Part shown: in pieces, positions 1,919 through 15,021 of the stretch
Position numbering within the stretch: the first letter of the stretch is position 1
Layout: each line of letters starts with the position of its first letter
Source: a virus
UHGV virus genome: UHGV-1375876
Direction: 5' to 3' (one strand)
Length of the DNA stretch: 45,898 bases
Program-made: the position numbers and the translations under genes
The notes under the pieces: model-generated
What the model was told of the DNA's origin: nothing
Databases searched by the model: none
What the model saw: only the letters and a program-made list of their open reading frames with translations

Positions 1919-1947
1919 AGAATAGGTAAATTTTACCTTTACGTCAA
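1919..1947 (-). promoter_or_regulatory. sigma70-like leftward early promoter (-35 TTGACG, 17-bp spacer, -10 TATTCT on the minus strand) with operator palindrome AGGTAAATTTTACCT (1924..1938) in the spacer
   Basis: Hexamers read from the minus strand. A near-perfect 15-bp palindrome is shared with the site at 2452..2466. Confidence 0.6.
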
Positions 1948-2039: not shown

Positions 2040-2402
2040 TCATTTTTGTGTTGCCAAAAGAGCTTTGATTTTCTCTTGTTCCTCTTTTTGTGCTCGATCT
2101 GCCTCAGCCAAGGCTTGTTTGATTACATCTCCCCAAGGCAAGCCCAAGGCGGCGCAAAGGTTCATCACGTCTGTCATCCTCAATTGTTGTGGCTTTCTGT
2201 TTTCTCCAGATCCTTGCCCCTTCCTGATTGATTGAACCTTTCTCCGAGAATCAGCAACGTGAGGGAATGCAAGCGAGCCAAGGGCTTGTTCGGTCATGCC
2301 TATGACTGTGCGGCGTTCCTCAAGTGCTCTTCGGATGGATTCTTCAAACGCGACCATCCCGGTTTCGTTTAGCACCTGCATTTCTCCTTTTCCCTCAGTC
2401 AT
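2040..2402 (-). CDS. XRE-family HTH transcriptional regulator; cI-like phage repressor without a peptidase domain
   Basis: About 120 aa with an XRE-like helix-turn-helix in the N-terminal half (IRRALEERRTVIGMTEQALGSLAF...). Start at the ATG with an AAAGGAGAG Shine-Dalgarno. It is flanked by two copies of the operator palindrome. No S24 or LexA-like domain. Confidence 0.7.
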   Translation of the reverse strand: MTEGKGEMQVLNETGMVAFEESIRRALEERRTVIGMTEQALGSLAFPHVADSRRKVQSIRKGQGSGENRKPQQLRMTDVMNLCAALGLPWGDVIKQALAEADRAQKEEQEKIKALLATQK

Positions 2403-2451
2403 AGCAAAAACTCTCCTTTTACTCTTGGCGTATTTTTTTGCATTGACAAAG

Positions 2452-2466
2452 AGGTAAACTTTACCT
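2452..2466. promoter_or_regulatory. operator palindrome AGGTAAACTTTACCT in the repressor promoter region
   Basis: Second copy of the 15-bp palindrome, lying between TTGACA-like elements upstream of the repressor start. Confidence 0.55.
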
Positions 2467-3778
2467 AAAAAGAAGTCAACAGGGCACGCCCAACCGCCCC
2501 GCGAAGAAGCGAACAGGAGGGAGTAGGCCACCGCTCAAGGGGCATTGTCTGATGGACGGCTAGAAACGGTGGCGTCAGGCTCTACACGGGAACCACGGCC
2601 CCATGCCCGAAGCGCAGCAGCGAGACGAGAGAAGACGCGGGGAAGACGGCGCATCAGCCGGAAAGCTCTCGACCTGTAGCATGATGCAGTGACTACAGGG
2701 GCCATGAAGCGACGGCGGCTCCATACCGGAACCACTTAGCGGGAAGGTCTTAGCGCCCCTCAATGGGAAAGGGGCAGCTTTGGCCTTTCGCTCAGGCTCA
2801 CCACCCGGAACTCATGGGAAGCCCGAATGCCTTTCTGCCTTTCCTCTTCGGCATATGCCTTTCCCCTCTTCGCCTACCGAGAGCCAGGGTCAGGGCGGGA
2901 ACCGCCCTCTTGCCGGAATGGGGGGACGGGAAAGATGAAAAAGGGGCACGGAATCTCAAAAGCCGTTTTCAATTCTTTTTGAGATGCTGCGAAGTGTGAA
3001 AAAACGCTAAAACAGGACATTTTACTCTGTGCGTAGCCTGTCCACGAAGTTTATGGGCAATTTATAAGCGATTTATGGGATTTTATGAGTTTTAAAAATA
3101 TCAACTTTTTCAATATGATACACTGTTTTATCTTCTAAGTAAGCTCATTTTAATAATCGTTCTTTGACAATCAGCCCCCATAACCCGCCCAGTCCGGTGG
3201 TAGTGTCATCGGTGGTATGGCGGATAGGGAAAACTTCATGGGCGGGTGGTTCGATGCCGGATACAGTACACCGGGAATCACCACGCCCTAGACCAGCGAC
3301 TAGTGAAAACAACCTTATCCACGCTCTAGCATGGTTCGGGAGTACGATTTCTCGCGCTCCCTTTCATGCTGGCGGTCGAACTGTCGAAAGGTCAACTGAC
3401 CGCCCGGATATAAAAATTCGTATTTCATCACGTTTCACGGCCCGATCTTTGTGTCGTAACCGTGGGCCCTGTTGGTCGGCTCGGCCCCCGTCGCTTCGGT
3501 GCGCTTTGCGCTTCGGCCTTCTTTTCAGCCGTTTTTCCGTCCCGCCGTCCCTGCGCGGCCTGTCTTCACCTCGCCAGCCTGTTGCCCTTCTTTTTCGCGT
3601 CCTACTGGGGAGCCTTAGCACTGGGGGTCGGCATCGTTCGGTTGCTCCATACTGAGCGGCTGGCTTCCTCCGCCCGGGGTTTCGGCTACTTTCCGGCTAG
3701 GTGCCTGGCGTGTTCGCCTTCCCCGTTCGTCGTGAAGTTACAATACCAACTGGTAAAAAATAGGTCAAGAATAAAATT

Positions 3779-3920
3779 CCCAATAGGTAAAGTATGAGGT
3801 TTGACATCCTCCCCCTGAAGGGAGAGGTTTTACGGCGCGTTGGATAAATATTCAACCCTTGAATATACAATAGGAATTACAGCGGCACCATTTAATGTTG
3901 ACTATAATTTTACCTATTGG
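3779..3920. promoter_or_regulatory. rightward immunity-region control sites: inverted half-site-related repeats CCAATAGGTAAA (3781..3792) and TTTACCTATTGG (3909..3920), and a perfect TATAAT at 3903..3908
   Basis: The two 12-mers are exact reverse complements about 115 bp apart and share the GGTAAA core with the operator. A further related sequence, CTGGTAAAAAATAGGTC, is at 3750..3766. Confidence 0.45.
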
Positions 3921-3932
3921 TATTTAGTTCCC

Positions 3933-4178
3933 ATGAAGAACGAACTTTCCCACCCTAGTTTTTACGGCTTCACAATTACTGACGCGGCCGCACGCTCAGG
4001 GCTTCCTTATGTGACGGTGTGGAGGCATTTCAAAAAACATCGCGCTATAAGCCCTGAAACTGCCATTCGTTATAATCGTTTTTTGGGTATCCCCCTTTCA
4101 TCTCTCAGGCCTGATCTGTGGCCTCCAACCCTCCCCAGCACTCCCACCGAACCCGAAGAGGTAGACCGTGCTGGATGA
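3933..4178 (+). CDS. putative Cro/CII-like HTH regulator
   Basis: 81 aa from an internal ATG. An HTH-like segment (TITDAAARSGLPYVTVWRHFKK) lies near the N-terminus. It is the first rightward gene after the non-coding region. No clear Shine-Dalgarno. Confidence 0.4.
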   Translation: MKNELSHPSFYGFTITDAAARSGLPYVTVWRHFKKHRAISPETAIRYNRFLGIPLSSLRPDLWPPTLPSTPTEPEEVDRAG

Positions 4179-4515
4179 ATGGGGGCTTGCTCGCTTCATC
4201 GGGTATCTCGGCGGGGCTGTTGCCTTTTGTTTTTTCACGCACCGCCGAGAGTCCCTCAATGCACCGCTGGGCCACGGCTTCCGGCGTCGGGTAGTCCTCG
4301 GCACGGTGCAAGGGATGCTTTCCGGCGTGAAGATCATACATCCGGCAAATGCTCGTGAGATCCGTTCGGCGCTCGGTGACGTGATCACGGCCTGCCGCCG
4401 GGTGCAAACACAGCTTCAACCTGTAGCCGCTTCCCGCGATCATACAGAGTGCCTTGCCTGTGTGAGGCCTGAAGCAAGAAAACCGTGGTGGAAAAAGATC
4501 AGGGGGGAAAGATAA
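4168..4515 (+). CDS. hypothetical protein
   Basis: GTG start with a GAAGAGGT Shine-Dalgarno. Codon third positions are GC-rich. The minus-strand alternative (4105..4695) looks less protein-like. Confidence 0.3.
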   Translation: MLDEWGLARFIGYLGGAVAFCFFTHRRESLNAPLGHGFRRRVVLGTVQGMLSGVKIIHPANAREIRSALGDVITACRRVQTQLQPVAASRDHTECLACVRPEARKPWWKKIRGER

Positions 4516-4727
4516 TGCCGATCTTGATCTGCCAACAGTGTGGTCGGATGTTCGAGGTGAAACGGTATTTTGCCGAAACCGCAAAATATTGCTCGAAAGA
4601 GTGCAAAGACAAGGCTGCACAGACGCGCGCCCCGCAAAAATGCAAGTCTGCGGGAAACTCTTTCCCGCAAAAGGACATGCCGTTTTTTGTGACAAGGCTT
4701 GTAGTTATGCTTTTAGAGCCGGGGTAA
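4515..4727 (+). CDS. Zn-ribbon protein (CxxCG..F..FCSxxC), frame A
   Basis: ATG with a GGGGGAAAG Shine-Dalgarno. The Cys motif is ICQQCGRMFEVKRYFAETAKYCSKEC. It overlaps frame B from 4640. Confidence 0.45.
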   Translation: MPILICQQCGRMFEVKRYFAETAKYCSKECKDKAAQTRAPQKCKSAGNSFPQKDMPFFVTRLVVMLLEPG

Positions 4728-4912
4728 GCCGTGAAGAATGGATTGCTGAACACCCGCAGAGTGACCAGTCAACGCTTTTCAAGCGTAAGTGCCATGACTG
4801 CGGGAAGCCCACGAACAATTACAGATGCCCGGCGTGTTGGGAAAAGCTCCGCAGCAGTTCAGAGATAGACGGCATCCCGGAATACGAAGTCATGGGGCAG
4901 GCATGGGTATAG
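4640..4912 (+). CDS. Zn-ribbon protein, frame B (two CxxC-type motifs); possibly the -1 frameshift continuation of 4515..4727
   Basis: Motifs CGKLFPAKGHAVFCDKAC and CHDCGKPTNNYRCPAC. There is no Shine-Dalgarno before its ATG. A canonical slippery heptamer, G GGA AAC at 4652..4658, lies in the frame-A register at the start of the overlap. Confidence 0.4.
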   Translation: MQVCGKLFPAKGHAVFCDKACSYAFRAGVSREEWIAEHPQSDQSTLFKRKCHDCGKPTNNYRCPACWEKLRSSSEIDGIPEYEVMGQAWV

Positions 4913-6119: not shown

Positions 6120-7921
6120 GCAGCATGAAGCAATACGACATCCGGCAAATTTCTGAAATGCTGGCGGCGAGGGCTGAGTCCGTTTGCGAGTGGCTGTTGC
6201 CCGGTGGAAAGCGTGAAGGCCGGGAATGGCGGGCCGGAAGTATAACCGGGGAGACGGGGAAGTCGCTTGGAGTCAATCTTTCCGGGAAACCGGGAGTGTG
6301 GCGGGATTTTGCGGACGATGCCAAAGGCGGCGATCTTATCGACCTCATTCAAGCCGTGCATGGGATCACGAAGGCGGATGCCGTCAGGGAGGCGAAAGAA
6401 TTCCTTGGCATAGCCTCAGAACGCCCACAATTCGCTCCTGAGCGCAAAAAGTACGTTAAGCCGACTCGTCCATCGGGATTGACGAAACCGAGCCCTGAAA
6501 TGCTTCTCTGGTTCGAAAAACGGGGCATCAGCAGAGAGGTCGTTGAAGCGTTCAAAATTGGGCAGCTAAACCATGCCCAGAAAGGGCCTGTCATCGTGTT
6601 TCCGTATCTGCGCGGCGGGGAACTTGTTTTTATCAAGTATCGCCCGCTGCATGACAAAAAAGACATGTGGACGAGCAAGGATTCTGAACCCTGTCTGTTC
6701 GGCTGGGATTTGATGCCGGAGAATGCGAGGACGCTGGTTATTTGCGAAGGGGAACCGGATGCAATGGCTTTTCGGCAAGCTGGAATCTGCGCCGTATCCG
6801 TGCCGCGCGGGGGTGGTGAGGGGGATAAGCAGGACGGGTGGATCGATGCGGAGTGGGAGCGCCTCCAGCTTTTTGACACGATTTACCTTGCGCTTGATCA
6901 GGACGAACAGGGCTGTAAAGCAATGGAGCATATTTCCCGCCGTTTAGGGCAGCATCGTTGTTTCATCGTCAGTTTTGGCGGGCACAAGGATGCAAATGAA
7001 GCTTTGGTTTCCGGGGTTGACCTGAAATCCGTTTTTGAATCTGCAAAGACTATCGATCCTGTGGAACTGCATTCCGCTTCTGACTATCTCGATGAAGTAT
7101 TTGCATATTTTAGTGACGCTCAAGAAGCCGGGGGGATCAAGCTGCCGTGGGCGAAGACGCAGACCACTGTCGGTTTGCGCAACGGAGAAACGACAATCTG
7201 GGCTGGCATAAATGGACATGGCAAAAGCCAGATTATCGGGCATGTTGTCGTTGATTCACTGGCAAAGGGAGAACGCTGGTGCGTCGCCTCCATGGAGTTC
7301 AAGCCATACAAATTCCTTGCCAGAATGGCACGACAGGCCTGTGCCACGAACAGACCTGAGCCGGGCGACAAACAGGCTCTTGACGCTTTCTGGAATGGTT
7401 CCCTCTGGGTGTTTGATGTGCAGGGTACAGCAAAGGCTGACAGGATTCTTGAAGTGTTTGAGTATGCGTATCGCCGTTATGGTGTCAGGCATTTTCTTAT
7501 CGACAGTCTGGCCAAATGCGGATTCGGCGAAGATGCATACAACGAACAGAAAGCCTTTGTTGATCGACTTTCAGACTTTGCCAGAAATAATGACATTCAG
7601 GTGCATCTTGTCTGTCACTCCCGCAAACGAAATGACGAATCGGACCTTCCTGACAAGTTTGACATCAAGGGAACAGGCGCAATCACGGATATGGTTGATA
7701 ATGTTTTCATTGTGTGGAGGAACAAGCCAAAAGAGCAGAAAGTACAGGAAGCGACAAGCGATTGGGGAAAGCAGCAAGCTCAGAATGAAGGGCCTGACGC
7801 CATCCTGTATTGCTGCAAGCAGCGCAACGGAGAATGGGAGGGGAAAATCAAGCTCTGGTTTGACCCAGCTTCTTTGCAATACCTGGAATCCGCAACTTCT
7901 TCTCCTGTGAGGTACTGCTGA
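6116..7921 (+). CDS. bifunctional DNA primase/helicase (TOPRIM primase plus DnaB/T7 gp4-like helicase)
   Basis: TOPRIM motif VICEGEPDAMAF and Walker A GINGHGKS. Helicase motifs DSLAKCGFGEDAY and HLVCHSRK are present. About 600 aa. Confidence 0.85.
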   Translation: MSSMKQYDIRQISEMLAARAESVCEWLLPGGKREGREWRAGSITGETGKSLGVNLSGKPGVWRDFADDAKGGDLIDLIQAVHGITKADAVREAKEFLGIASERPQFAPERKKYVKPTRPSGLTKPSPEMLLWFEKRGISREVVEAFKIGQLNHAQKGPVIVFPYLRGGELVFIKYRPLHDKKDMWTSKDSEPCLFGWDLMPENARTLVICEGEPDAMAFRQAGICAVSVPRGGGEGDKQDGWIDAEWERLQLFDTIYLALDQDEQGCKAMEHISRRLGQHRCFIVSFGGHKDANEALVSGVDLKSVFESAKTIDPVELHSASDYLDEVFAYFSDAQEAGGIKLPWAKTQTTVGLRNGETTIWAGINGHGKSQIIGHVVVDSLAKGERWCVASMEFKPYKFLARMARQACATNRPEPGDKQALDAFWNGSLWVFDVQGTAKADRILEVFEYAYRRYGVRHFLIDSLAKCGFGEDAYNEQKAFVDRLSDFARNNDIQVHLVCHSRKRNDESDLPDKFDIKGTGAITDMVDNVFIVWRNKPKEQKVQEATSDWGKQQAQNEGPDAILYCCKQRNGEWEGKIKLWFDPASLQYLESATSSPVRYC

Positions 7922-11142: not shown

Positions 11143-11543
11143 GTGGCGGCAGGCCTGCGATAAAACGATGCAAAGAAAAGGCCTCGCTTGTAGAGGTGAT
11201 GGCTCAATACGGCGTACCGCAGGATGAAATTGCCGCAAAGATCGGCATGTCTGCTGATACGATGGTGAAGCTCTACAAAAAAGAGCTACTTTCCGGGAGG
11301 ACAAACGCTAATTTCAAAGTGGGAAAGCGACTGTTTGATAAAGCCATGTCGGGGGATACAACGGCCCTCATTTTCTGGGCAAAGACCCGGATGGGGTGGA
11401 GAGAGACGCAAAAAGTCGATCTTTCCAGTTCCGATGGAACGATGTCGCCTGTACCAGCACTTGAACTTTCCCATCTTTCTCCCGATGATCTGCTCAAGCT
11501 GACGCGGGAAGCCTTCAAAGAGACGGAGAGGAATGGCGGGTGA
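11139..11543 (+). CDS. terminase small subunit
   Basis: HTH-containing protein of about 134 aa immediately upstream of the large terminase. ATGA coupling on the upstream side. Confidence 0.65.
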   Translation: MSGGRPAIKRCKEKASLVEVMAQYGVPQDEIAAKIGMSADTMVKLYKKELLSGRTNANFKVGKRLFDKAMSGDTTALIFWAKTRMGWRETQKVDLSSSDGTMSPVPALELSHLSPDDLLKLTREAFKETERNGG

Positions 11544-14500
11544 GACGCTTGCTGAAATCCGCCGTGCGCTGGCCAGGAGCTGCATGGCGGCCTTCGTGCG
11601 CCACACCATGCCCGCCTACCGCATGGGCTGGGTGCATGAGGAGGTTTGTGCCGAACTGGACGCCTTTCTTGCCGATGTCGTAGCCGGGCGTTCCCCGCGT
11701 CTCATGCTGACCATGCCCCCGCGTCACGGGAAACTGTGCGCTGATGATACTCCTGTTTTGACGGTTGATGGGTGGAAAACTCATGGTGCGCTTAAGGTTG
11801 GTGATTATGTATTTCACCCAAGTGGCAAACCTGTGAGGGTTGTTGCTGTGGGCGAGAAAAATTTTGCCACTCATTCTGTTGTTTTTACCAATGGCGACAT
11901 AATAGATGTGCACCTTGATCATGAGTGGCGGGTGTATGACAGGACTAAACCCGGATATAGAACAGTTGAGACACGATACTTTGTGGAGCCAAGCAAAAAA
12001 ACTAAGGCGCTTAGGAAGCTGGATAGCGGTATCCCAGACACCAGAGGGCACAGGTATTTGTATCAGGTGGACACAGCTGATGCTCCCCAATGGCCTGCCG
12101 TAGAACACGTTATCCCGCCATACGTTTTGGGCGTGTGGTTAGGTGATGGAACGTCAATCGCGCCCAGAATAAACATGGCTCCTGATGACGCTTGTGTCGT
12201 CAAAATGGAGTTTGAACGACTAGGTGTGCCAATAACTGGAACATGGGTGCATAGAGATACTGGAGTTGAAACTTTTTCATTTGCCAGCGGCGTGAAAAAT
12301 AGAAGAAATATATTTTCGCAGGCTCTAAAAGATGCTGATCTGCTAAAAAATAAACATATTCCTAATGAGTACAAGCATGATAGCCTAGAAAACAGGCTTG
12401 ACTTGCTTGCTGGACTTATTGATACGGATGGTCATTTTGATAGAAAGACAAACAGATATCGTTTTACAACATCCAATGAGCTGTTAGCGCATGATGTAGA
12501 AGAATTGGCCATGCTATGCGGGTTTGTAGCGCATACAAATATCCCAGCACTAGATAATCGGGAAAGAACGATTAAAAATAAGTCACAGGTTTATGTGGTG
12601 TCATTTTTCTTTTCCGGTGTAGTTGTCCCGTGCAGACTTGAACGGAAAAAAGTTAATAAAACGTTTTCTTCTCTGCGTCGGCGCGTATCCATCAAATGTG
12701 TACGAGCGCTAGAGTCGCCTAAAATGGGGAATTGTATTCAGGTGGATAGTCCAGATGGCTTATATTTAGTTGGCAAACACCTTACGATAACCCACAATAG
12801 CGAGCTGGCCTCCCGCCGCTTCCCGGCCTACGCCTTGGGCCGCTACCCCGATCTATCCGTCATTTCAACGAGCTACGCCGCCGACCTGTCCTCGCGCATG
12901 AACCGCGATGTTCAGCGTGTCATCGACAGCCCGGAATACCGGGAACTCTTCCCGGGAACAGCCCTTTACGGCAAGAATATCCGCACCGTCGGGAACGGCT
13001 CTTATCTCCGCAACTCGGATATCTTCGAAATCGTGGGGCACGCTGGCTGCTACCGTTCCGCTGGCGTGGGCGGCGGCATCACGGGCATGGGTGGGCATAT
13101 CGTCATCGTCGACGACCCGTTCAAGGACCGGGCGTCCGCCGATTCCCCGACCATCCGCCAGAACGTCTGGGACTGGTACACGTCCACGTTGTACACGCGC
13201 CTCGCGCCCGGTGGAGGGGTGCTCATCATCAACACTCGCTGGCACATGGCTGACCTTTCCGGGCGGCTGCTTGAGGCCGCCGCACGGGGGGAGGGCGACC
13301 ACTGGCGCGTGGTAAACTTCCCGGCCATCGCCACGGAGGATGAGCCGCACCGCAAGGCAGGTGAAGCCTTACACCCTGAACGCTACCCGTTGGAGCAGCT
13401 TCTTGCCATCAAGAAAGCCCTCGGCACACGCGACTGGGAGGCCCTGTACCAGCAGCGGCCTACGCCAGACGGCGGCGCCATCTTCAAATCCGAGTGGCTG
13501 CGGTTCTGGCTCCCCAAAGACCTGCCGGAGCAGTTCGACCAGCTCCTTATCTCGTGGGATATGACGTTCAAGGACGGCGACGATACCGACTTTGTTGTGG
13601 GGCAGGTGTGGGGCCGCAAGGGGGCAGACCGCTACCTCCTCGATCAGGTCCGGCGGCGCATGGGATTTACGGACACGGTCGCCGCGTTCCGAGCGCTCGC
13701 CGCTAAATGGCCCGGCGCAACCCGTAAGCTGGTGGAGGATAAGGCCAACGGCCCGGCGGTCATCGACGCGCTGAAACACGCCGTGCCCGGTATCATCCCC
13801 GTGGAGCCGGACGGCAGCAAGACGGCTCGCGCCCATGCTGTGACCACGTTCTTCGAGGCCGGGAACGTCCTTATCCCGCACCCTGAGCATTGCCCGTGGG
13901 CGCGGGAGTACGTCGCGGAACTGACGCAGTTCCCCGGAGCGCCCCACGACGATCAATGTTTTGCTGCAGGCACTTTAGTTGCGACTTTGCGAGGGGGTAT
14001 CCCAATTGAAAAAGTAAAGGAAGGTGATTTTGTTGTGACTCCTCAAGGGTTTAGGCGTGTGTTGTTCGCTGGAAAAACCGGAGAGTCTGTGTTATTGTAT
14101 CGACATGGAATTTTTGCAACTGCGAATCATCCGTTCATGAAAACCAGTGGAGAAGTTTGCAAATTTGCAGAAATAGAAAAGTCTGAACTTGTTCACATGA
14201 CTATAAGGGAGTTGCTAGTATGGATATTCCGAAAAGAGTTGAATTTAATGGCGTCACCTATGCCCTCATGGCAGGGGGGAAATACTATCTTAGTCAGTCA
14301 AAAACAAACGCAGGTAGGAAAAATCCGAAGGGGCTTCATGTCGCTATTTGGGAATACTACAGTGGCAAGAAAGTCCCTAAAGGGTATGAGATTCATCACA
14401 AAGATGGTAATACACATAACAACAATTTTGACAACCTTGAGTGTTTATCACGTTGTGAACACCGCAAAACGGTTAAGCAAAACAAAGAAAAATGCCGTAA

Positions 14501-15021
14501 GCACCTTGAAGAAGTACGCCCTCTTGCTACTGAGTGGCACAGGAGCGAAGAAGGCCGTGCATGGCATCGAGAGCAAAGCAGGAAGGCATACGCAAAAAGA
14601 GAGTATACTGAGCATGTTTGTGAGTACTGCGGCAAGACGTATAAAACGCGCCATACGGGAAAAAACCGCTTCTGTTCCCATAATTGTGAAATCAAATGGC
14701 GATATCACAATGAATACGAGCTTGCCGAGGGTGTGTGCCAATGGTGCGGCAAACCGTTCACATACAAGACCGGAACCTGCAGAAAAAACAAAGTACGTAA
14801 ATTCTGCAGCAAGTCTTGCAGCACAAGCCACTTCAACGCCCAACGCCGTGCCAGTGTATAACCTCACCGTAGAGGGCGAGCACCTTTATTTTGCTAATGG
14901 GGTGCTCGTCCACAATTGTGACGCCACCACTCAGGCCCTCCGCGACTTCGACGCCAAACGCCCCATGTCTATCAATCCTGCTATCCTCACTCAACCACGT
15001 ATAGGGTATCGCTTCCGGTAA
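11533..15021 (+). CDS. terminase large subunit precursor interrupted by two inteins (extein about 488 aa)
   Basis: Exteins carry P-loop PPRHGK..S, Walker B IVIVDDPF and nuclease HDD motifs. One continuous 1162-aa frame spans two Hint-type insertions. Confidence 0.85.
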   Translation: MAGETLAEIRRALARSCMAAFVRHTMPAYRMGWVHEEVCAELDAFLADVVAGRSPRLMLTMPPRHGKLCADDTPVLTVDGWKTHGALKVGDYVFHPSGKPVRVVAVGEKNFATHSVVFTNGDIIDVHLDHEWRVYDRTKPGYRTVETRYFVEPSKKTKALRKLDSGIPDTRGHRYLYQVDTADAPQWPAVEHVIPPYVLGVWLGDGTSIAPRINMAPDDACVVKMEFERLGVPITGTWVHRDTGVETFSFASGVKNRRNIFSQALKDADLLKNKHIPNEYKHDSLENRLDLLAGLIDTDGHFDRKTNRYRFTTSNELLAHDVEELAMLCGFVAHTNIPALDNRERTIKNKSQVYVVSFFFSGVVVPCRLERKKVNKTFSSLRRRVSIKCVRALESPKMGNCIQVDSPDGLYLVGKHLTITHNSELASRRFPAYALGRYPDLSVISTSYAADLSSRMNRDVQRVIDSPEYRELFPGTALYGKNIRTVGNGSYLRNSDIFEIVGHAGCYRSAGVGGGITGMGGHIVIVDDPFKDRASADSPTIRQNVWDWYTSTLYTRLAPGGGVLIINTRWHMADLSGRLLEAAARGEGDHWRVVNFPAIATEDEPHRKAGEALHPERYPLEQLLAIKKALGTRDWEALYQQRPTPDGGAIFKSEWLRFWLPKDLPEQFDQLLISWDMTFKDGDDTDFVVGQVWGRKGADRYLLDQVRRRMGFTDTVAAFRALAAKWPGATRKLVEDKANGPAVIDALKHAVPGIIPVEPDGSKTARAHAVTTFFEAGNVLIPHPEHCPWAREYVAELTQFPGAPHDDQCFAAGTLVATLRGGIPIEKVKEGDFVVTPQGFRRVLFAGKTGESVLLYRHGIFATANHPFMKTSGEVCKFAEIEKSELVHMTIRELLVWIFRKELNLMASPMPSWQGGNTILVSQKQTQVGKIRRGFMSLFGNTTVARKSLKGMRFITKMVIHITTILTTLSVYHVVNTAKRLSKTKKNAVSTLKKYALLLLSGTGAKKAVHGIESKAGRHTQKESILSMFVSTAARRIKRAIREKTASVPIIVKSNGDITMNTSLPRVCANGAANRSHTRPEPAEKTKYVNSAASLAAQATSTPNAVPVYNLTVEGEHLYFANGVLVHNCDATTQALRDFDAKRPMSINPAILTQPRIGYRFR
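11737..12798 (+). mobile_element. intein 1 (354 aa) in the terminase ATPase P-loop, with a LAGLIDADG homing-endonuclease domain
   Basis: Starts CADDTPVLTVDGW and ends LTITHN with S at +1. LAGLIDADG motifs are LGVWLGDGT and LLAGLIDTDGHF. Markedly AT-richer than the flanking sequence. Confidence 0.75.
13957..14916 (+). mobile_element. intein 2 (320 aa) in the terminase nuclease HDD motif, carrying a nested HNH endonuclease ORF in another frame
   Basis: Starts CFAAGTLVATLRGG after HDDQ. Ends VYNLTVEGEHLYFANGVLVHN with C at +1. Block B is TANHPF. AT-rich. Confidence 0.75.
14220..14861 (+). CDS. HNH homing endonuclease with C-terminal Zn-finger repeats, free-standing ORF nested inside intein 2
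   Basis: HNH motif GYEIHHKDGNTHNNNFDNLECLSRCEHR, followed by multiple CxxC pairs. It has its own AAGGGAG Shine-Dalgarno and ATG. It is in the +2 frame relative to terminase, while the terminase frame stays open. Confidence 0.75.
   Translation: MDIPKRVEFNGVTYALMAGGKYYLSQSKTNAGRKNPKGLHVAIWEYYSGKKVPKGYEIHHKDGNTHNNNFDNLECLSRCEHRKTVKQNKEKCRKHLEEVRPLATEWHRSEEGRAWHREQSRKAYAKREYTEHVCEYCGKTYKTRHTGKNRFCSHNCEIKWRYHNEYELAEGVCQWCGKPFTYKTGTCRKNKVRKFCSKSCSTSHFNAQRRASV

Follow-up and report, generated by a model that had tools for sequence, protein, structure and literature searches.

A gene-free tract in the immunity region of a temperate Bilophila wadsworthia phage probably encodes two large, convergent structured RNAs

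To our knowledge, control of early phage transcription by RNA alone is represented essentially by one system, the 70-nucleotide (nt) put of phage HK022. The put RNAs of HK022 (~70 nt) fold into two stem-loops, and putL and putR are alike. In HK022, putL is found just downstream of PL and putR downstream of PR (PMC9378689). A second comparison is offered by conAn2, a "large RNA element" which is predicted to span 260-600 bp, lies at the start of a long operon with several intrinsic terminators and is poorly conserved in sequence between systems (PMC8191782). [quoted passage not shown] Here we analyzed a stretch of phage DNA, the UHGV virus genome UHGV-1375876 (45.9 kb in full; hereafter the window), in which a gene-free tract at positions 2403-3932 lies between two regulatory genes. 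We compared this tract with its relatives and with the systems above, and find that it most probably gives rise to two structured RNAs, named RNA1 and RNA2.

The phage is temperate, and the genes of the window include those for RecT, a PD-(D/E)XK exonuclease, a DnaD-like loader, a primase-helicase, RusA, a lysozyme, the portal and the terminase. We read the tract as a pair of early transcription units, convergent and under repressor control, in a temperate phage of Bilophila wadsworthia, with one large structured non-coding RNA made from each, and assign this reading a probability of roughly 0.85-0.9. A preliminary description of the tract, made from the letters alone, had offered a structured non-coding RNA as one of several options. 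This option is supported in a sharper form, namely two separate RNAs on opposite strands, each from an operator-controlled promoter, and the features which that description listed are real and beyond chance. Its remark that so long a non-coding tract is unusual in a compact phage genome needs qualifying: within this phage group such a tract is the rule.

The relatives were drawn from IMG/VR and from human-gut metagenomes and comprise dozens of B. wadsworthia phage and prophage contigs, in which the region is a mosaic of exchangeable modules. Homologues of RNA1 were found by nhmmer in 48 locus entries, with 39 distinct core sequences, and an nhmmer profile of RNA2 found 66 locus entries. Blastn of positions 2400-4000 against 50,697 GenBank phage records gave no match. 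Among species-representative genomes the sole genuine match was a prophage of B. wadsworthia ATCC 49260 (NZ_JNJP01000012), the remaining 57 of 58 matches being chance hits of a pattern that was too degenerate.

The RNA1 transcript is conserved from its first nucleotides, AACAGGGCAC, which follow a conserved TTGACA and about 10 operator/spacer versions, and its 3' boundary is set where homology stops in loci that differ in their downstream DNA. A structure set by hand, with 53 pairs in eight helices, has 96.5% of cells paired, and in 16 of its pairs both sides have changed. None of 500 shuffles was as good, and sliding the partners by 1-3 columns left at most three such pairs. The counts are made per sequence, not per evolutionary event, in sequences that are related; the slid control is the more informative. 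RNAalifold, applied to 14 RNA1 sequences of the same type, returned 65 pairs, 15 of them compensatory. Each helix re-forms in each sequence type, with up to 13 variants: eight sequence versions occur of the helix that closes the conserved 18-nt loop, the loop itself being invariant, and the helix at 2673-2699 exists as CUGUAG/CUACAG, CUGUGG/CCGCAG, CUGCCC/GGGCAG and CCGUCC/GGACGG. G-U pairs fix the sense of RNA1 as the plus strand. Folding with covariation analysis, a check that had been suggested for the tract, thus supports a structure for RNA1.

Several of the local features described earlier can be placed within this structure. The hairpin CCTGTAG/CTACAGG (2673-2679/2693-2699) is a genuine helix, in which relatives show compensatory changes, and the imperfect repeats TGCCTTTCC...CTCTTCG are present at 2836-2847 and 2856-2867. 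The complementary pair GCCACCG/CGGTGGC (2527-2533/2567-2573) is also present; its 3' arm lies inside the conserved loop of the covarying helix 2547-2554/2573-2580, so that the pairing, if real, would be a pseudoknot. Another candidate partner for the ACGGUGG of this loop is CCACC at 2799-2803. A long-range pairing proposed by RNAalifold, CGGG (2587-2590) with CCCG (2804-2807), was rejected in favor of a local helix, in whose partners locus L144 changes G to A and C to U.

For RNA2, the minimum free energy of the window copy is better than that of shuffled sequences (z = -3.2 and -3.30), and none of 100 shuffles was as good. An identical architecture of the 5' domain is predicted in every sequence type, even though the hairpins themselves are swapped. 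P5 exists as GCCAGCC/GGCUGGC, GCCCCA/UGGGGU and GCCGGUU/GACUGGU, while P2 becomes a perfect 9-bp helix either through a change of AA to CC (L067) or through a change of GG to UU on the opposite side (L176). The hairpins of the 3' domain are likewise swapped, as in GCGC-AAA-GCGC versus GGAUG-AGA-CAUCC. In a composite alignment of P1, P2 and P5, assembled from anchored helix strands, the covariation score was 0.178, whereas shuffles scored 0.072 and none of 500 was as good; three pairs of P5 showed compensatory changes. The sense of RNA2 is fixed as the minus strand by a G-U pair in 21 of 24 sequences. P1 itself (CUUCAC, 3737->3732, with GUGAAG, 3569->3564) is present in every fold and 100% paired, yet we doubt it; its variation is wobble only, and the CUUC lies upstream of the predicted start and so would be untranscribed. 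Global MAFFT alignments of full-length RNA2 and RNA1 followed by RNAalifold recovered few pairs, because hairpins swapped between sequence types misalign, and were replaced by same-type alignments, anchored extraction of helix strands and per-sequence folds. The pyrimidine-rich plus strand noted earlier at 3480..3720 lies within this RNA: no 300-nt segment of the window is more strand-biased than the one starting at 3429, which has the lowest plus-strand purine fraction (0.343, against a mean of 0.505 with a standard deviation of 0.049), and a minus-strand RNA over it would be 65.6% purine and 5.6% U.

Each RNA is positioned directly downstream of a promoter that bears an operator. The four promoters of the region form two outward-facing pairs of the sigma-70 type, A/B flanking the gene for a 120-amino-acid (aa) protein and C/D flanking a 129-bp spacer. 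A and B are inverted-repeat partners over 33 nt (I1), and C and D are likewise partners of one another (I2, I5). Palindromic operators overlap all four promoters, with an arrangement that differs between the pairs (GGTAAA-N-TTTACC at A and B versus TACC-N4-GGTA at C and D). A common geometry, in which the -10 hexamer is followed by 6 nt ending in C and then by A, is found in four of four promoters, and transcription is therefore predicted to start at 1912, 2478, 3733 and 3933. Position 3933 coincides with the first base of the start codon (ATG) of the cro-like gene, whose mRNA would therefore be leaderless. In 35 homologues of promoter B the -35 hexamer is kept in register with about 10 spacer/operator types, and the transcript is conserved from ~+1; in 34 homologues of promoter C the -35 and -10 hexamers are kept and the transcript is conserved, while spacers and operators vary. 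About as many operator/spacer versions (~10) are found upstream of RNA2 as of RNA1.

The 120-aa protein gave no match to Pfam, PHROG or NCBIfam profiles, and phmmer against PDB sequences returned noise only. Its AlphaFold2 model (mean per-residue confidence score, pLDDT, of 85.5) shows an XRE-type helix-turn-helix (HTH) fold, with the five helices of this DNA-binding fold and a long C-terminal helix. Foldseek matched the model to C.BclI, ClgR, HipB, C.AhdI and the 434 repressor with target-normalized template-modeling scores of up to 0.76, at weak E-values of at least 0.005. On the basis of this model the protein is the probable repressor or controller of operators A and B. Together with the operators at all four promoters, the XRE-type neighbor makes the earlier label "immunity region" a reasonable one. 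The window is without the cI/S24-type repressor that relatives have between promoters C and D. In L009-L013 this interval holds that repressor and a 293-aa gene, both absent from the window; the 244-aa protein of L009 is annotated by PHROG as "transcriptional repressor / CI-like", and L005 encodes a cI-like protein as well as the 120-aa protein. The 293-aa gene of L009-L013 and L005 is ClpP/SppA-like. The phage of the window may rely on the 120-aa HTH protein alone or be a repressor-deletion variant.

The relatives also show how the two RNAs are used as modules. In L004 and L153, RNA1 runs straight into the ribosome-binding site and ATG of a zinc-ribbon gene, the first of the replication operon. 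In L009, L017 and L061 the sequence GCCCGG-AACUACA-CCGGGC-UUUUU comes next after RNA2, ahead of the ribosome-binding site and ATG of the first early-left gene, and promoter C is also present upstream of RNA2 in L061. In many relatives the RNA2 5' domain is directly succeeded, on its own strand, by 2-5 tRNA genes (up to Met, Leu, Phe, Ser and Gln), and this domain stays promoter-adjacent even where the tRNA island replaces the remainder of the RNA. In L060 a tRNA-like gene separates the two RNA2 domains. ARAGORN predicts a recurrent tRNA-like gene, 85-89 nt long, at the head of the phage tRNA islands, which in L060 is the one inside RNA2; its anticodon loop is abnormal, reported as "anticodon (aa)", and its amino acid is unassigned. 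In L003 a 150-aa open reading frame (ORF) at 4297-4749 on the plus strand of the locus, TerB-like by eye, lies between tRNA genes and the AT-rich cassette; the space between the two RNAs is a cargo slot.

What the RNAs do is approached here by analogy. We tentatively favor, at odds well below even, a model in which each RNA would be a cis-acting leader that helps RNA polymerase to read through terminators, as put or conAn2 does. This model is suggested because the RNAs are fused to their promoters, occupy a leader position in simpler relatives and have terminators along both paths. Promoter B would fire rightwards to give RNA1 and promoter C leftwards to give RNA2, presumably only on induction. 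Each RNA would then be the promoter-proximal leader of an early operon and would act in cis on its own RNA polymerase, suppressing pausing and termination as put RNAs, the EAR element and conAn2 do, so that once the repressor is lifted transcription would pass the intrinsic terminators that it meets. On the RNA2 side these would include the terminator of the 120-aa gene and several more on the minus strand, and on the RNA1 side the hairpin at 3808-3831, ahead of cro and the replication genes. Terminator-like hairpins on the minus strand are found at 2009->1988, 43889->43869, 42739->42718, 42154-42125 and 39890->39875. Strong minus-strand hairpins of this kind separate genes within the leftward operon, one of them immediately following RecT.

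The likeness to put lies in conservation from ~+1 of operator-bearing, sigma-70-type early promoters in a temperate phage, in the terminators further along both operons, and in the lack of a protein gene between promoter and RNA. The likeness to conAn2 lies in the size of RNA1 and RNA2 and in their position at the start of a long operon that contains terminators. The differences are considerable. RNA1 and RNA2, at ~548 and ~490 nt, have at least seven helices each and do not resemble one another; the put units diverge from the immunity region, whereas the RNA1 and RNA2 units, for which antitermination is a proposed role, converge. conAn2 lies downstream of the ConAn1 gene and depends on it, belongs to pLS20-type conjugative plasmids of a Gram-positive host, and is not described, in the account consulted, as having a covarying structure of comparable complexity. 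We found no ORF between either promoter and its RNA that could be a ConAn1-type gene upstream in the transcript, a search that did not extend to ConAn1 homology elsewhere in the window.

A number of observations weigh against the leader model, above all the convergent layout. In loci that carry both RNAs these are convergent in 20 of 20 cases at E<=1e-10 and in 30 of 30 at a looser threshold. Because the RNAs face each other, RNA1 has no gene directly downstream in most genomes, and two polymerases resistant to termination would run into each other and would copy the tRNA island in antisense. Both RNAs are 7-8 times larger than put and have nothing in common with it, and the RNA2 nhmmer profile does not find RNA1, so that no homology is detectable between them, while putL and putR are similar. 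The association with tRNA islands and the two-domain build fit RNAs of the ROOL/GOLLD kind equally well. Neither the hairpin at 3808-3831 nor that of L061 is listed by the terminator scan, and the exact start sites and RNA ends are predictions. A single RNA1 sequence folds no better than shuffles (z = +1.15 and +0.33), so that the support for RNA1 is comparative and not thermodynamic. A paralogous origin of the two RNAs was considered and rejected, as they have in common only a 14-nt motif, GAAGCGACGG(C/G)GGC (I13), which could be chance. This motif is present at 2706-2719 on the plus strand and at 3497-3484 on the minus strand, in the same sense and both times immediately 3' of a hairpin; it may serve both RNAs as a binding site for a protein or for polymerase, or be a coincidence with rough odds of 0.05-0.2.

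The main alternative, which we consider only a little less likely than the leader model, is that RNA1 and RNA2 are free-standing, "ornate" RNAs of the ROOL/GOLLD kind, made in bulk as end products on induction and acting in trans, perhaps assembled from RNA alone or partnered with phage tRNAs or the translation machinery and not with their own polymerase. Both RNAs are large, multi-helix, conserved and encoded in phages or prophages under lytic promoters, as would be expected of such a class; their size of ~0.5 kb, their many helices and their long conserved loops agree with it, as does the absence in most loci of a gene downstream of RNA1 in its direction. The tRNA island that follows the RNA2 5' domain in many relatives, and the tRNA-like gene between the domains in L060, recall the neighborhood of ROOL and GOLLD and the two regions, linker tRNAs and lytic expression of GOLLD (PMC12286853). 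Different are the strict fusion to +1 of operator-controlled early promoters and the use as operon leaders in simpler relatives, which are not known features of ROOL or GOLLD, the convergent pairing, and the lack of a clear 3'-end terminator for either RNA in the window. tRNA islands are not found in the window, where ARAGORN detected neither a tRNA nor a tmRNA. Rfam 15 gave no match over the whole window at the gathering threshold, and at E<=10 over 2300-4100 it gave only five unrelated weak matches (CRISPR repeat, HTT-AS1, PsrR1, mir-637 and sot0042). On 10 homologous loci only tRNAs passed and nothing was recurrent. The named candidates of the preliminary description (GOLLD, ROOL, HEARO, group II intron, RNase P, tmRNA and 6S) thus have no covariance-model match in the window or in these loci. 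The search is able to detect HEARO and tRNAs, both of which it found in relatives (HEARO in L004, outside the region). A literature search for Bilophila phages and non-coding RNA retrieved nothing relevant.

A bolder combination, which we regard as improbable, would make RNA1 and RNA2 two new classes of ~0.5-kb RNA that reprogram RNA polymerase or form RNA-only particles and that together act as a head-on, RNA-based switch between repressor systems, gating the early genes and the tRNA island.

Somewhat less probable again is a switch by convergent transcription or antisense RNA. Promoters B and C, under different repressors (the 120-aa HTH protein and the cI-type protein missing here), would fire into each other, and read-through would occlude or silence the opposite unit by polymerase collision or a long antisense RNA, setting the lysis-lysogeny decision or its timing; the folded 5' parts could then mainly stabilize or time the transcripts, and such a switch could coexist with leader or free RNAs. 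Face-to-face promoters are known from pR/pL of coliphage 186, Pe/Pc of P2 and prgQ/prgX of pCF10, where the transcripts overlap over tens to a few hundred bases and regulation relies on interference or short antisense RNAs. As in these systems, the promoters here converge in a region that decides between two developmental states and each is under a repressor. Convergence in all 30 loci with both RNAs, the differently arranged operators of the promoter pairs, the presence of both cI-like and 120-aa proteins in L005 and the absence of a strong terminator between the units in the terminator scan of the window are all in keeping with a switch. The distances involved, however, are far beyond those of the known switches, with promoters B and C 1.25 kb apart in the window and RNA1 and RNA2 cores separated by 0.6-2.7 kb, with cargo genes, in loci that have both. 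Moreover, each transcript opens with ~0.5 kb of conserved, covarying structure that interference does not need, and each RNA is also found without the other as a plain operon leader.

The AT-rich cassette between the 3' ends of the two RNAs is the part of the tract for which an element acting as DNA (an attachment, packaging or partition site, a replication origin or an array of protein-binding sites) deserves consideration. It is a discrete unit with 96-99% identity in 12 related loci, which makes it too conserved for structure or covariation to be read, and it contains a sigma-70-like promoter match at 3091-3119 on the plus strand, from the promoter scan, and the short direct repeats ATTTATGGG, present twice. 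The AT-rich core reported earlier is confirmed, with a GC content of 0.365 over 3001-3200 against 0.56 for the whole window. The GGACA/TGTCC hairpin with a T-run that had been described at its edge exists (3016-3050), but it is weak, with 5 bp and a 19-nt loop, and is unlisted by the terminator scan; we therefore rejected it as a terminator. For the tract as a whole a DNA-level role is very improbable. The near-invariant cassette with its repeats, and the fact that no integrase was found among the window proteins scanned, speak for one; against it, the RNA segments are conserved in line with base-pairing that includes G-U pairs possible on only one of the strands, which DNA sites do not explain, a promoter stands at the start of each segment, and the tract lies between regulatory genes and not at a genome end. 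Of the attachment, packaging or partition sites suggested earlier, a role is thus unsupported in either RNA segment and possible only in the 240-bp cassette.

That the tract is a decayed or frameshifted protein gene, such as the integrase remnant once suggested, or neutral spacer is scarcely credible: its long stop-free stretches (the longest mechanical ORFs are of 163 and 111 aa) are what GC-rich DNA would be expected to give, the 10 longest ORFs have no credible Pfam or PHROG match even at E<=1, variable columns of the homologue alignments fall evenly by position modulo 3 (27/33/43 and 65/63/60) with no codon periodicity or third-position bias, gap runs are chiefly of 1, 2 or 5 nt and thus frame-breaking, and the compensatory base-pair changes and the conservation across dozens of otherwise mosaic contigs point to base-pairing as what is conserved. 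The tract thus shows none of family homology, codon-position bias or indels in threes, and the original view that it holds no credible ORF stands.

Table 1. Coordinates of the predicted RNAs, promoters and bordering features in the window, with tRNA-like genes of relatives (locus coordinates)
Feature	Position	Strand	Details
Promoter A	1919..1947	-	-35 TTGACG, -10 TATTCT; promoter scan; left flank of 120-aa gene
Promoter A operator palindrome	1924-1938	-	AGGTAAATTTTACCT; predicted start A1912
Terminator of 120-aa gene	2009->1988	-	Terminator scan
Left border gene, 120 aa	2040-2402 (ends 2402)	-	Sequence/ORF list
Promoter B	2443..2471	+	-35 TTGACA 2443-2448, 17-nt spacer, -10 TAAAAA 2466-2471; read from sequence
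Promoter B operator	2452-2466	+	AGGTAAACTTTACCT, within spacer; predicted start A2478
RNA1	~2478-3025	+	~548 nt; predicted structured RNA driven by promoter B
RNA1 helix	2547-2554/2573-2580	+	Covariation; conserved 18-nt loop, GACGG..ACGGUGG core
RNA1 helix	2587-2590/2606-2609	+	Covariation
RNA1 helix	2626-2631/2666-2671	+	Covariation; inner helix 2647-2650/2657-2660
RNA1 helix	2673-2682/2689-2699	+	Covariation
RNA1 helix	2717-2722/2728-2733	+	Covariation
RNA1 long hairpin	2742-2759/2771-2789	+	Covariation
RNA1 3' part, hairpins	2892-2908 and 2954-2984	+	
AT-rich cassette	3010..3249	.	240 bp; GC 0.39; between 3' ends of RNA1 and RNA2
RNA2	~3733-3240	-	~490 nt; predicted structured RNA driven by promoter C
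RNA2 5' domain	3733->3573	-	Arm P2-P3-P4, linker, arm closed by P5
RNA2 P2	3729-3721/3679-3671	-	
RNA2 P3	3718-3716 with 3686-3684	-	
RNA2 P4 hairpin	3709-3693	-	
RNA2 conserved linker		-	GGAGGAAGCC; between P2-P3-P4 arm and P5 arm
RNA2 P5	3664-3658/3579-3573	-	
RNA2 3' domain	3569->3432	-	Hairpins 3559-3544, 3531-3514, 3511-3501, 3464-3436
RNA2 distal hairpins	3405-3371, 3369-3329, 3288-3240	-	
Promoter C	3740..3768	-	-35 TTGACC 3768->3763, extended -10 TGgTATTGT, hexamer 3745->3740; promoter scan
Promoter C operators	3744-3755; 3779-3789	-	TACCAACTGGTA; CCCAATAGGTA; predicted start A3733
C/D spacer	3769..3897	.	129 bp; terminator-like hairpin CCTCCCCCTGAAGGGAGAGG+TTTT at 3808-3831 (+)
Promoter D	3898..3935	+	-35 TTGACT 3898-3903, -10 TATTTA 3921-3926; read from sequence
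Promoter D operator	3911-3922	+	TACCTATTGGTA; predicted start A3933
Right border gene, 81 aa	3933-4178	+	cro-like HTH; weak HTH_3 match
tRNA-like genes of relatives	L060 4971-5059; L076 8509-8597; L077 1052-1139; L082 532-616; L157 4816-4903; L187 2891-2978		

Several observations concern genes outside the tract. The zinc-ribbon gene of the window (4516-4912, plus strand), a single ORF of 144-145 aa in L004 and L153, is split over two frames (ORFs 4485-4727 and 4538-4912), which could reflect a frameshift, a sequencing error or a pseudogene. The large terminase subunit (11533-15021, plus strand; 1162 aa) has Terminase_6N and 6C domains, with a LAGLIDADG signal at residues 289-337 and Hint/intein-splicing signals at residues 809-1128, and probably holds one or two inteins. 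In the early-left region, at ~425-572 on the minus strand, overlapping low-complexity ORFs, one with Gly-Ser-Tyr repeats (GSGYGD...) and the other, in another frame, with an Arg-Leu repeat, indicate a short tandem DNA repeat. In L004 a HEARO RNA (6903-7117, plus strand; scoring 137 bits where the gathering score is 83) is located just past the homologue of the 120-aa gene; HEARO being the IscB-associated omega RNA, this suggests an insertion of the IscB/IS200-605 type there.

As judged from these comparisons, RNA1 and RNA2 putatively represent two new RNA families that form a convergent pair under repressor control. If this is true, two new families of large structured RNA stand at the control point of lytic development in temperate phages of B. 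wadsworthia, a sulfide-producing pathobiont of the human gut. They would join traits of put with traits of ROOL and GOLLD, being large, covarying and linked to tRNA islands and at the same time promoter-fused operon leaders, and they would offer a testable handle, in that promoter and terminators are defined and a lysogen (ATCC 49260) can be cultivated. For annotation, the lesson is that where a long stretch of a phage immunity region looks "gene-less", it can consist of RNA genes and not of junk or pseudogenes.

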